Source of the DNA: Eledone cirrhosa
Taxonomy: Eukaryota
DNA: 64,000 bases
Direction: 5' to 3'
NCBI GenBank assembly: GCA_964016885.1
Contig: OZ024765.1
Span: forward strand, 13,826,001-13,890,000
Each line of letters starts with the position of its first letter. Position 1 is the first letter of the stretch. The notes below the pieces were generated by a model, which was not told where the DNA came from, searched no databases, and was given only the letters and a program-made list of their open reading frames with translations. Position numbers and translations under genes: made by a program. Of this stretch, positions 23,105 to 54,125 are shown piece by piece.

Positions 23105-23421
23105 TATACTATAAGGATAAGGAACAAGGATTCAGTGTTGCATCATACCATATTTAATAACACATTACATATGTTTCACTATCAATCAGCCCGAGGCAAG
23201 ATCCATTATAGATCAAACCTAACTCTGTAATCGAAAGGTCGTCAGATATGCTTAGTATACAAGTTCGTCTCCAAGCATATCTGACCACCTTTCTATTCCA
23301 GAGACAGGTTCGATCTATAATAGATCTTGCCCCGAGCTGATTGATAGTGAAACATATGTAATATGTTATTAAATATGTTATGATGCAACACTGAATCCTT
23401 CTTCCTTATCCTTATAGTATT
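23105..23421. ncRNA. Inverted repeat carrying a hammerhead pair (minus 23161-23250 with CTGACGA; plus 23276-23365 with CTGACCA variant), long stem II
   Basis: CATAT-CTGACGA-...-GAAA-CATATG-TA-ATGTG; ~145-bp arms. Confidence 0.7.
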
Positions 23422-23548
23422 ATACTCTGCTCTGAACGAGCATCAAGTGCTCAACCGGCATACCGCCTATGGACACATTTTTCTAGCAACCATACAACTA
23501 TATATATATATATATATATATATATATATATATATATATATATATATA

Positions 23549-23791
23549 TAAAGAAAAAGAGATGAAATCGAAAATGCAACTGAAGTCTTATTTTTTTTTT
23601 AAATATATATATTTATTTGGTTCCTTTACCGGTTTCGCAGTTGTGAGAAAAACCACAGACCCTCCATCTCAACTCACCTTTTGAAAAGCAGAAGAACTGC
23701 GAAACCGGTAAAGGAACCAAATAAATATATATATTTTTTAAAAAAAATAAGACTTCAGTTGCATTTTCGATTTCATCTCTTTTTCTTTATA
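23549..23791. ncRNA. Inverted repeat (~93-bp arms) with degenerate hammerhead at 23677-23714 (+)
   Basis: CCTT-TTGAAAA-GCAG/CTGC-GAAA-CCGG-TA-AAGG; core mutated. Confidence 0.55.
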
Positions 23792-24203
23792 CTTCCACTC
23801 GTGTAGGACACCTCGGTTATTTTTCATTTTGTAAAAAAAACCTCACTTTCTAATATATATATATATATATACAAATGGAAATTTAGTAAAATCAAAGTTT
23901 GGACTGTGGCCAAGCTAACGATATACAATTAGGAATGTGCAGCAAAGCACTCGATAAGGTTGTGTCACCTTAGAGTAATAACATACGTTAGATAGCTTGA
24001 CAAATTGAAAACTGCGACAGGTGAGCCCAGCCACATGAAACCAAAGCAGCGAAAAAAACCAATCAGGTATTGACAAACATATATATTTATATATATATGC
24101 ATGTGCGTGTGTGTGTATATATATATATATATATATATTTGAAGTATTTCCGTAGGAAAGGTAAAGGAAAAGAGAGTGCTCTATGTAGGCTACAGAGCTT
24201 TTT

Positions 24204-24411
24204 AGTTATGTAATAAACAACATAAGATAATTATTTCATTTACCAAAGGTTTCACGAAGACAGACGAGCTTGGCACATGTCGGCCTTCAATCATCAGAAT
24301 AATATTAATTTCATTCTGACGATTGAAGGCAGACGTATGTGCCAAGCTCGTCTGTCTTCGTGAAACCTTTGGTAAATGAAATAATTATCTTATGTTGTTT
24401 ATTACATAACT
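24204..24411. ncRNA. Inverted repeat carrying a hammerhead pair (minus 24235-24302, plus 24311-24379)
   Basis: TCATT-CTGACGA-(GAAGGCAGACG/CGTCTGTCTTC)-GAAA-CCTTTGG-TA-AATGA. Confidence 0.8.
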
Positions 24412-24545
24412 ATATATATATATATATATATATATATATATATATATATATATATATATATATATATGTATATATAACAAAAATAAAGGTTTGGGTGAGG
24501 AAGAAGTGTAAAATAAAGTTAGAATGTAGCTAGATCAATATTTAC

Positions 24546-24668
24546 CATCACATTTAGCTTCATCAGATCTGTCGGCAGGGCCACAATCTAATTCTCCGTC
24601 ACATGAAAACTTGGCTGGAATACAACGGCCACTGTCACAGGCAAATTCATTGTCACTACATTTGATTT
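24546..24668 (-). CDS. Exon: LDLa repeat 3
   Basis: [14 protein letters not shown]...CDGELDC...SDEAKC; ctgcag/gtaaat. Confidence 0.93.
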
Positions 24669-25894
24669 CTGCAGAAGAAAGAAAGAAAATAAGAAGAAAG
24701 TAAAACAAAAGGAAAAAAGGAAAGAAAAAGAAAGAAGAAAATAAGAAGAAAGTAAGACAAAAGAAAAAAAGAAAGTAAGAAAAAAAGAAAAAAAAAAGAA
24801 GTATCGGTAGAGCATCAGACATGCTTTGCAGCATAGTTATGGCCCTTTACATACTGAATTCAAATCCTGCCGAGGTTAGCTTTGCCTTTCTTCCTTATGG
24901 GTTGATAAACAAAGTACCAGTAATATACTGGGGTTGATTTAATTCGACTTTCCCCATCACCCAAATTGCTCGCCTTGTGCCCACCAAATTGCATATATAT
25001 ATATATGTGTGTGTGCGTTTGTTTTGATTGAGTATTGATCTGTTGCATGCGGTTCGCAGATGATTTGCCCAAAGTCACCTGTGGAAGCTGTGGGCCCTGA
25101 CTCCAGCATCGAGCTGCTCGTCAGACAGGTGGTTCAACATAAAATAAAGTGGTGTATCATCATCATCATCATCATCATTTTACGTCCGCTTTTCCCTGCT
25201 TGCAAGGGTGGGATGGGTCCTATTCAGCACAGCATCTCTCCACTTGTCACGGTCCTTCGTCATCTCCTCCATGAGCTTCAGCGATCTGAGGTCTGCTCTC
25301 ACCAGCCCCACCCATGTTTTTCGTGGTCTTCCTCTACTGCATCTTCCTTCAACTGGCATTTCTTGGCACTTCTTTACCCATCGGTCATCCTCCATGCACA
25401 TCACATGTCCATACCATCGCAGTCTCCTCTCCCGCACACTACAACTTACCCCTCTTAAACAGTTTCTCTCTCACCACCTCCACCCAAGTTTTTCGTGGTC
25501 TTCCCTCTTATACCCAGTTTCTCTCTCAACTCATCTATGCTTGGTCGTTCACGCACCTTGACATTGCACATCCAATGGAACAGGCTTGCTTCATTTCTCT
25601 CCAGCATATCCTCTGTAGTTGCTGCACATGTCTCACTACCATGCAGCATCGCACATCTCACACAGGCATCATATAACCGTCCTTTCGTACGCAGGGAGAA
25701 TATATATATATATTTAAATATTTTAATTTAAATAAACCATTATCTTTTCAACCTTTCGGACACTCATTTGCATACTCACTCATAATTTTCTATCACCCTC
25801 AATAAATGTAATATCTCCACTATCCAGGAAGCTCCAACCGTTAAGGTTGTCTTTTTTTCCGGGCATGTCAATATTTATTTATAAAACAAATCTG

Positions 25895-25960
25895 TATTTT
25901 ATCTGATGAAAGCGCACCATAATTTGCCTTGGTGGTCCTTGAAATATGTATAATAAAATA
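25895..25960 (+). ncRNA. Type I hammerhead ribozyme
   Basis: TATTTTAT-CTGATGA-AAG..CTT-GAAA-TATGTA-TA-ATAAAATA; downstream tail homologous to 52750-52870. Confidence 0.72.
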
Positions 25961-51622: not shown

Positions 51623-51674
51623 CTAGCAATGAAATAACATCAATTAAATTTATATACATATACATGGTGTTGGG

Positions 51675-52372
51675 TTGGGAAGGGCACCCAGCCGTAGAAA
51701 ACCCGCCAGACGTGTAGGTGTCACGACAATAAAACACACAGTCCATGCTGTAATGTGGCCGTGTAGGTAACACGGTAAAAACCTCCCAGTCCACACTGTA
51801 AACGTGGTTGGTGTTAGGAAAGGCATCCAGCCGTAGAAAACCCGCCAGACATGTAGGTGTCATGACAATAAAACACACAGTCCACGCTGTAATGTGGCCG
51901 TGTAGGTAACACGGTAAAAACCTCCCAGTCCACACTGTAAACGTTGTTGGTGTTAGGAAGGGCATCCAGCCGTAGAAAACCCGCCAGACGTGTAGGTGTC
52001 ACGACAATAAAACACACAGTCCACGCTGTAATGTGGCCGTGTAGGTAACACGGTAAAAACCTCCCAGTCCACACTGTAAACGTGGTGTTAGGAAGGGCAT
52101 CCAGCCGTAGGAAACCCGCCAGACATGTAGGTGTCACGACAATAAAACACACAATCCATGCTGTAATGTGGCCGTGTAGGTAACACGGTAAAAACCTCCC
52201 AGTCCACACTGTAAACGTGGTTGGTGTTAGGAAGGGCATCCAGCCGTAGGAAACCTGCCAGACAGTCCTGAGCAAGACAACCAATCTTGCCTCAAGTGGG
52301 ACAATTCCCGTCCAGACCCATGCAAGCGTGGAAGATGGACGTTAAACGATGATGATGATGATGATGATGATG
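51675..52372 (+). repeat. ~139-bp unit x4 plus RTE-type tail, homologous to 61395-61645
   Basis: Direct homology, ending ggacgttaaac(gat)n. Confidence 0.85.
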
Positions 52373-52391
52373 AACCAGTAATTCCAATTAC

Positions 52392-52709
52392 CTTATTTTC
52401 AAAGAATGGATACAGTTTAATGTAAAGTTGATGGTTTGGGTTGAAGAGAACTCGGAAACCAAATCCCTCGACTAAGATGAATTGAAGGGTAGCTTTCTTT
52501 ACATAGATGTAACGTGAGAGATAGGGCAGTACAGGGTTAACTTCATCATTAACACTGATTTGGTTGCCATCCAATGTAATGGTCACTCCATAAGCAGATA
52601 TTGTGACCTTCATTAAACAGTTTTGTTTTACTGTCCACCCAGTTGAGCAGGGTCTGTAGGCTGCAGTGATTCTCAAATTGGCACGTTTGTCAGTATAAGT
52701 TCTGATTGG
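52392..52709 (-). CDS. Exon: VWD2 core
   Basis: 106 open codons (PIRTYTDK...FRVLFNPNHQLYIKLYPFFENK); tttcag/gtaatt. Confidence 0.9.
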
Positions 52710-52838
52710 CTGAAAAAAGAAAAATATATATATATATATGCAAAAGTACTATTTAAATTGTTGGGATACAACAAGCAAATATTATTATAACTGATATAAA
52801 GCACTCGACAAATATTTGGAGTAGATATACAATATTAA

Positions 52839-53090
52839 TAAATGGAAACTATATTTATAAAACCATATTTATTTCATTATATATATTTCAAGGATACCAA
52901 GTTAAATCATGGTATGCCTTCATCAGACAAAATACAATATATAACAGTTTTACAACAGTTTTACAATATCTATTTGTAAAACTGTTATATATTGTATTTT
53001 GTCTGATGAAGGCATACCATGATTTAACTTGGTATCCTTGAAATATATATAATGAAATAAATATGGTTTTATAAATATAGTTTCCATTTA
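52839..53090. ncRNA. Near-perfect inverted repeat with hammerhead pair (minus ~52869-52934, plus ~52995-53059)
   Basis: TATTTTGT-CTGATGA-AGG(ATACCA/TGGTAT)CCTT-GAAA-TATATA-TA-ATGAAATA in both arms. Confidence 0.8.
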
Positions 53091-53593
53091 TATATATATA
53101 TATATACATATATAGTTTCCATTTATATATATATATATATACATATACATATATATATAATATATATTATATATATATATAATATATATTATATATATAT
53201 GTATATGTATATATATATATAAAGAGAGAGAGAGAGAGTGAGAGAGAGAGAAAGGGGGAGAGAAATATGTGAATATATATATTAAGTGTATATATATATA
53301 TATATATATATATATATATACATTAAATATATATGCATATATATGTATATATGTATTAAGTATATATTCATATATATATATATCATCATCATCATCATTT
53401 TATGTCTGCTTTTCCCTAATATATATATATATTTGTGTCTGTTTATATATATATATATGCGTGTATGTGTGTATATATACATATATATATATATATATAT
53501 ATATATATATATATATATATATATATATATACATATATCTATATATATATATATATATATATATATATATATATATATATATATATATATATA

Positions 53594-54125
53594 TATTGTT
53601 ATACTTTGGGAGGGTCATGTTGCCAATAAGAAACACACGCACCAGTTGCTTTCACTTCAATTTATTATAATAAATTTATAAATTTAGGAATTTATAAATT
53701 TCCGGTTGGTTGGTTGGTTCCACAACCAGATGGTTGTTTATATATTGTCAAAGTTCTTTCGTCACACATTCTGTGACCTCTTCAGTGACTGGGGATTCTT
53801 TTCTTTGTTTTTTGTGCCTCTCCTTTGTTGTGTCCTACGCCATCTTCAGCATAGAAGATGGCGTAGAAGATGGTGTAGGACAGAACAAAGGAGAGGCACA
53901 AAAAACAAAAGAAAGAAAAGAATCCCCAGTCACTGAAGTGGTCAGAGAATGTCTGACGAAAGAACTTTGACAATATATAAACAACCATCTGGTTGTGGAA
54001 CCAACCAACCAACCGGAAATTTATAAATTCCTAAATTTATAAATTTATTATAATAAATTGAAGTGAAAGCAACTGGTGTGTGTGTTTCTTATTGGCAACA
54101 TGACCCTCCCAAAGTATAACAATAT
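53594..54125. ncRNA. ~530-bp hairpin (~255-bp arms) with hammerhead pair (minus 53747-53789 CTGAAGA; plus 53929-53971 CTGAAGT)
   Basis: GTCA-CTGAAGA-G(GTCACA/TGTGAC)-GAAA-GAAC-TT-TGAC. Confidence 0.72.

Follow-up and report, generated by a model that had tools for sequence, protein, structure and literature searches.

The host gene and its five foldbacks

The stretch of DNA analysed here (the window) comprises 64,000 nucleotides from Eledone cirrhosa (OZ024765.1:13,826,001-13,890,000). Among protein matches the best named one, at 39%, is from Argonauta hians, which agrees with a likely octopus-like cephalopod. All of the window falls within a single gene of the minus strand that combines VWD, TIL and LDLa exons with mucin-like repeats. 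Two more matches on the same strand lie outside the window, a TSP1 exon at a distance of ~48 kb to the left and a weak EGF-like one ~8 kb past the right edge. Two introns of the gene contain five inverted repeats with hammerhead ribozyme motifs, named A to E (listed starts 23105, 23549, 24204, 52839 and 53594), which probably are insertions of truncated ends of Penelope-like elements (PLEs). In all five families a copy ends either directly at (TA)n, here called the short end, or after a conserved tail of 55-100 nt, which is then followed by (TA)n. The intron borders given below are GT/AG sites taken from the DNA sequence alone.

22493..24542, minus strand: putative host intron, flanked by an LDLa exon on either side, with GT at 24542 and AG at 22493; contains A, B and C as well as the hammerheads 22794 (plus) and 23010 (minus)
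22918..23072, minus strand: sixth PLE end; its hammerhead (core 23010) is in host sense and has a stem I of 11 bp
23105..23500: family A insertion; minus-strand left arm with intact core 23245, ending short at (TA)n; plus-strand right arm with a changed core at 23281 (CUGACCA) and the tail 23420-23500, (TA)n following
23549..23851: family B insertion; minus-strand left arm with the short end and a cut within stem II; plus-strand right arm with the U3-A8 core at 23681 and the tail 23792-23851
24139..24411: family C insertion; minus-strand left arm with the tail 24139-24203 and core 24297; plus-strand right arm with core 24316, ending short at (TA)n
52654..54245, minus strand: putative host intron, flanked by a VWD exon on either side, with GT at 54245 and AG at 52654; contains D and E
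52740..53090: family D insertion; minus-strand left arm with the tail and core 52926; plus-strand right arm with core 53003
53594..54180: family E insertion; minus-strand left arm with the short end and intact core 53785; plus-strand right arm with a changed core at 53933 (CUGAAGU) and the tail 54126-54180

All five inverted repeats of the initial annotation were found again, and in each of them the minus-strand copy lies on the left and the plus-strand copy on the right. The arms are 83-97% identical, counted over half-lengths (A 142/158, B 100/121, C 98/104, D 122/126, E 251/266); the low value of B is due to its unpaired centre of ~55 nt. An 8-nt insert forms the centre of D, and A and B abut one common (TA)n tract. 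It had been proposed that one arm stops at (TA)n, which is the case, and that the other usually continues into a unique tail. The tail is not unique but conserved across the family, and it is present exactly once in every element of the window. Since the tails belong to the elements, the units are longer than originally listed, and the spans above are the corrected ones.

The type I hammerhead descriptor gave 13 matches in the window, compared to none in each of 15 local shuffles and none in the reversed sequence. The descriptor-intact cores within the elements are 23245 in A, 24297 and 24316 in C, 52926 and 53003 in D, and 53785 in E. On the host sense (minus) strand the cores of A, C, D and E are thus intact; on the plus strand those of C and D are intact, and A and E show one core change each. 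The B copy had been described as partial and degenerate. Its left arm is truly partial, because it ends inside stem II and leaves the host sense strand with only the 3' half of a B hammerhead. The right arm, however, is not a decayed core: UUGAAAA was found in 53 of 55 B pattern matches across the fetched loci, some of which overlap, and U3-A8 covariation is described for minimal hammerheads (PMC4209133), which together indicate a family trait. The motifs share with the minimal type I hammerheads of metazoan PLEs the short helix III, the U3-A8 variant and, in several families, an extra base after position 9, whereas the 61-nt stem II region in the left arm of A differs from them (PMC4209133).

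Seven further descriptor matches without antisense cover, which were absent from the initial annotation, lie at 22794, 25903, 34948 and 59911 on the plus strand and at 23010, 35929 and 43604 on the minus strand. Core 23010 belongs to the sixth PLE end, ~100 nt from element A and in the same intron as A to C; its partner arm is a C-like tail piece only (about 23029-23072), which leaves the core uncovered. A scan of the window with Rfam revealed no hammerhead family at E up to 1. The microRNA-like Rfam matches on the hairpins were below the gathering score and were taken as chance matches to perfect stems.

Between 22730 and 24411 five hammerhead-bearing insertions are found within 1.7 kb, three of them linked via common (TA)n tracts. 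Each insertion would be left with (TA)n on either side, into which the next one could go, and the clustering is likely due to this retention of the target.

Assignment to Penelope-like elements

For each family, searches of the species' own genome (3.0 Gb) yielded between 301 and 1629 first-look candidates; the best 40 were scored and 30 loci (numbered with L) were fetched, so that copy numbers per family are lower bounds and biased to close copies. Each of the five elements is one copy of a repeat family. The proposed PLE origin is supported by open reading frames (ORFs) for reverse transcriptase (RT) and GIY-YIG endonuclease (EN) which are attached to families D and E. In tandem copies of both families the tail extension runs on into the ORF start.

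The structure of family D is best seen in L156, which contains an inverted pseudo-long terminal repeat (pLTR), a pLTR, the tail, an ORF of 743 aa, a 3' untranslated region of ~1.7 kb and a further pLTR. A tandem start is found in L157, and in both loci pLTRs occur as direct repeats; D arm pairs that are 2.7-4.7 kb apart flank ORF remnants. The 743 aa ORF comprises the motifs LDIANYY, MGS, YRDD, VVY and YVG, and the frame in L157 comprises RWR at 38, DKT at 119, CNCRNKSNC at 602, CDLC at 700 and CRH at 727. Pfam revealed neither an RT nor a GIY-YIG match on the full-length D ORFs, while one D fragment matched GIY-YIG under the curated cut-off (E=0.0009). Family D is young, and many of its copies are 100% identical to the query; for the C-terminal part all 144 scored matches have an identity of at least 90%, with 72,293 further first-look candidates left unscored. 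Described marks of the Hydra clade of C-terminal EN-containing (EN+) PLEs are RWK, DKT, a CxCX5C linker, CxxC and CxH in place of CCHH, and (TA)n targets (PMC8557442). Compared by motifs, family D has the same DKT, linker, CxxC/CxH, (TA)n targets and a canonical hammerhead, its RWR being a conservative variant of RWK; its unit of ~4.3 kb from pLTR to pLTR (L156) exceeds the general size of below 3 kb, which is a descriptive limit (PMC8557442). Family D is an autonomous PLE with Hydra-clade motifs.

Family E can barely be aligned to family D. It forms tandem units of 4.04-4.09 kb with RT and GIY-YIG frames (L314, L315, L321); RT and EN frames are seen in L315, L320 and L321, and direct-repeat pLTRs in L314 and L315. 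The linker has the form CX4CxxC (CIDKKCITC), followed by VVY and YIGET (L321), and fits the CX2-5CxxC which precedes the GIY-YIG domain in Neptune and Nematis. E is an autonomous PLE with a linker of the Neptune/Nematis type, the two clades not being told apart.

For family C, a relative that has the same 3' end and tail was found after a GIY-YIG-like frame (L313). Most copies of A begin within ~30 nt upstream of the query, and both A and B have hot spots of 5' truncation 30-45 nt upstream of the core. Some B copies reach 190-620 nt further, and no ORF was found in 1.4 kb. A strictly fixed 5' end, which had been considered for B, was dropped after loose ends and longer copies were found. Direct-repeat pLTRs, that is partial tandems, were not seen for A, B and C. 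All five families have in common an inverted 5'-truncated copy with a one-sided tail, and a type I hammerhead in the pLTR, recognized by descriptor matches in A, C, D and E and by the U3-A8 core in B; cleavage is only predicted for these motifs. Non-LTR retrozymes, which are tandem arrays of hammerhead monomers, were ruled out, as each of the five elements is a pair of inverted copies. Copies of D and E are flanked by further PLE ORF fragments of other families (L306:3718-5579, L316:8240-8932, L319:5350-6846), including an inverted GIY-YIG pair.

Ends and junctions of the copies

The 150 fetched loci were reduced by 14 duplicates and by 8 loci without a central arm found by the script, which left 128, and 74 of these have an inverted partner inside the 1.5 kb flank. 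In 72 of the 74 two-armed copies one short end is joined to one tail end (p=3e-19 versus one half); two B rows in this count are doubtful because of an internal palindrome. The same pairing was found for 14 of 15 pairs in gene-body DNA that was fetched regardless of these families, and the exception is clipped by the locus edge.

The junctions between the arms were resolved for 15 of 16 D copies. In 11 of them it is the short-ended arm that extends further 5', in the other 4 the tailed arm. At eight of these junctions the arms overlap by 1-6 nt, three are blunt to 2 nt, and four contain inserts of 8-53 nt. Minor variants are common to both arms more often than in shuffled pairs for A (0.53 versus 0.11), B (0.33 versus 0.14) and C (0.54 versus 0.13), with 0, 0 and 6 of 2000 shuffles reaching the observed value. 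Five B loci (L175, L176, L178, L179, L180) have one common central junction inside stem II of the hammerhead, and the query contained this junction; these loci carry different subfamily variants. A recurrent truncation site is likely.

Integration of the elements

The directly observed features are two outward-facing 3' ends of differing type, each fused to (TA)n, and a variable inner truncation. The common integration mechanism that the initial annotation had suspected is supported, since all five families obey one end rule. The foldbacks are probably 5'-truncated PLE-end insertions into intronic (TA)n, whose layout would result from a double-strand cut and a double copying of the RNA. The element enzyme would cut both target strands, and each strand would prime one complementary DNA (cDNA), one at the short start site and the other at the tail start site. 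The rule that a short end pairs with a tail end indicates that the two start-site choices are coupled, for which one complex on one RNA would be the simplest arrangement. The two truncated cDNAs would then be joined centrally by a repair-type reaction, either by microhomology or by templated fill-in, and the antisense copy of the hammerhead would be a by-product.

This geometry is already known, and what is new here are families of a known kind of insertion. Published EN+ PLE insertions show the same head-to-head layout, a tail at one end, a pLTR hammerhead, microsatellite targets and partial tandems; their tails have 30-40 nt, compared to 55-100 nt here (PMC3846280, PMC8557442). In contrast to these insertions, most copies found here are reduced to the two ends, and the pairing of short and tail ends could be counted over five families. 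Pairs of minimal hammerheads that lie ~100-700 bp from each other, one on each strand, have also been published (PMC4209133). For the element Poseidon_Ac it was demonstrated in vitro that the PLE protein cuts and extends both strands of AT-rich targets and that the tail is bordered by two internal RT start sites (PMC11167929). For Octopus vulgaris, a published annotation of repeats counts 31 Penelope-like families as recently active; the word hammerhead is absent from its main text (PMC13282606). In the literature searched, mostly open-access main texts, no paper was found on a coupled short and tail end rule or on an intron strand bias of PLE hammerheads, and "twin priming" was not found in those papers searched that mention pLTRs.

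Twin priming is known from LINE-1, where two primings from the two target strands yield an inverted 5' part. In LINE-1 inversions the joined segments mostly do not overlap and a poly(A) forms the end, whereas here both arms copy the same segment and the 3' ends face outward.

Several observations weigh against the insertion model proposed here. An inverted partner inside the flank is missing in 54 of the 128 loci. When 9 partnerless D loci were fetched again with ~8 kb, two had a clear inverted partner, one a complex structure of three pLTRs, one a divergent (83%) inverted copy and five no partner. Two pairs of the same end type (L058, L119) were lost from the classified set, and including them the count is 72 of 76. 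For Poseidon_Ac, the start sites used on the two strands were not seen to differ in vitro, which by itself does not predict a strict pairing (PMC11167929), while the two arms here nearly always differ in their end. The variants common to both arms could equally stem from one active source locus or from gene conversion, and the E arms show no excess of sharing (0.20 versus 0.15, a value reached by 568 of 2000 shuffles). No ORF was linked directly to A, B or C in the fetched loci. Contigs from four runs over 22650-24660 gave only a repeat pile-up, with no spanning piece and no empty site, and any target-site duplication would be hidden by (TA)n on both sides.

It is unlikely that the foldbacks arose by snap-back, that is by the folding and copying back of one cDNA or antisense template, with an endonuclease trimming one end and leaving the one-sided tail. 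Self-priming on an antisense template was proposed earlier (PMC3846280), endonuclease resolution of the tail was suggested as well (PMC8557442), and such a process accounts for the variants common to both arms and for the microhomology at the junctions. A folded tail-primed cDNA, however, must leave the tailed arm longer, whereas in D the short-ended arm is the longer one in 11 of 15 cases, and priming at the short end would give a cDNA from which no tail could be copied. The argument from arm length bears on the simple snap-back of a cDNA and not on the version with an antisense template. The pairing in 72 of 74 copies, together with the finding that either arm can be the shorter one, favours two coupled priming events over snap-back. 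An origin as DNA transposons, either of the miniature inverted-repeat (MITE) or foldback type or as mobile whole hairpin units, can practically be dismissed: the five B loci mentioned above share the same end layout besides their junction, though the query held that junction, but each of them matches its own subfamily variants between its two arms, and in place of fixed termini and a fixed interior the ends differ, arm lengths, junctions and interiors vary from copy to copy over spans of 135 nt to >4 kb, and the arms of D and E run into RT/GIY-YIG ORFs, which refutes this origin for these two families.

Returning to two coupled priming events, we consider it conceivable, if somewhat doubtful, that across at least two PLE clades one enzyme dimer copies a single RNA twice, with one subunit for each start site and one for each cut strand. 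If this were true, the pairing of short and tail ends and the variants common to both arms would be its genomic footprint, and the inverted pLTR and the one-sided tail would result from a single event. The counted end rule (72/74 and 14/15) is a modest addition, which constrains models for the integration of PLEs, these relatives of telomerase, and can be tested in the Poseidon_Ac assay.

Does the antisense copy silence the ribozyme?

The initial annotation had suggested that the inverted partner silences cleavage inside the host pre-mRNA. Its premise, that a full partner pairs over the ribozyme, holds in folding predictions, where the CUGANGA core has an unpaired probability of 0.76-0.86 alone and of 0.00-0.14 within the foldback. 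Owing to the head-to-head layout, transcription from either side would reach the antisense arm first. Silencing is therefore physically plausible, however it is unsupported by the strand counts.

Strands were counted in gene bodies, set by same-strand matches to spectrin and LDLa exons, and in the host gene; in total this made up 21 segments with 1,131,700 bases. Three segments are less securely one gene, and the size of 1.13 Mb limits the power of the test. Motifs were called with the type I descriptor and the family B pattern; a prior run on 1.07 Mb had given 70 motifs and none on the reversed sequence. Antisense cover is symmetric by construction. The 84 motifs comprise 19 covered and 20 uncovered ones in sense and 18 covered and 27 uncovered ones in antisense orientation. 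Uncovered hammerheads are thus not significantly rarer on the sense strand (20 versus 27, p=0.38), and their sense share is 0.43 with a 95% interval of 0.28-0.58. Without the insecure segments, the edge cases or the host gene the p values range from 0.34 to 0.53. Copies that fail the descriptor number 22 in sense and 16 in antisense orientation (p=0.42), where about 9 rows are AT-rich false matches. As 20 of the 39 sense-strand hammerheads have no antisense cover, such cover is not required in introns.

Selection could still act as a filter, in that a sense hammerhead would cut the host pre-mRNA and intronic copies would persist mainly when covered; we regard this as quite improbable, and a strong filter of this kind is unlikely. 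The predicted pairing of the core inside the foldback agrees with it, as do the leaning of uncovered intact matches to the antisense strand and of descriptor-failing copies to the sense strand, and according to a preprint tandem retrozymes are depleted from Xenopus introns (10.64898/2026.07.22.740005). Neither of the two leanings is significant, however, and the uncovered sense hammerhead 23010 with its 11-bp stem I persists within the intron of A to C. The youngest family is no poorer or richer in foldbacks (13/25) than older ones (12/24 and 13/25), and the cores of two uncovered hammerheads are predicted to be mostly paired in their context as well (0.21 and 0.38). Furthermore, minimal PLE hammerheads are described as inactive as single monomers (PMC4209133), and a second report found no cleavage without the element protein (PMC11167929), so that perhaps hardly any activity would need silencing. 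Within the 95% interval given above, uncovered sense copies may still be weakly depleted.

At the available power the strand count answers the question of silencing negatively, and introns tolerate uncovered sense hammerheads. In this test on about twenty genes there is no sign that the mirror copy is retained for silencing the predicted ribozyme. If transcribed, the foldbacks would yield double-stranded RNA of 100-260 bp in the pre-mRNA, which is a plausible candidate substrate for editing or small RNAs.

Further features of the host gene

The host gene, which presumably resembles hemocytin or SCO-spondin, is encoded on the minus strand throughout the window and has further parts at L166:1285-1923 and L124:8450-8623; it also contains C8-like exons, and its mucin-like repeats are Thr-rich. 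At 2491-12966 and in L123 and L163 a unit made up of a Thr-rich exon and, after it, a module of ~119 aa is repeated in tandem at least nine times, with a spacing of ~3.3-3.6 kb. The modules are 91-95% identical and have no Pfam match, and the length of the Thr tract is variable. A single open frame of ~1,430 codons with a Cys-rich stretch lies ~65 kb right of the window (L172:5130-9434, minus).

A frame of 595 aa at 61785-63572 (minus) has an RT domain and a PHD-finger match and belongs to an element similar to LINEs (long interspersed nuclear elements), and short related pieces recur in many introns of the window. An intronic tRNA match with 66 bits lies at 29066-29138 (minus), near an inverted repeat at 27707-28944 with a spacing of 846 nt; weaker tRNA-like matches at 14143, 17924, 39282 and 56851 resemble the heads of short interspersed nuclear elements. 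A tandem array with a period of ~64 nt and >20 copies occupies 32225-33900, and other intronic minisatellites are located at 49930-50500, 54490-54800 and 56978-57540.

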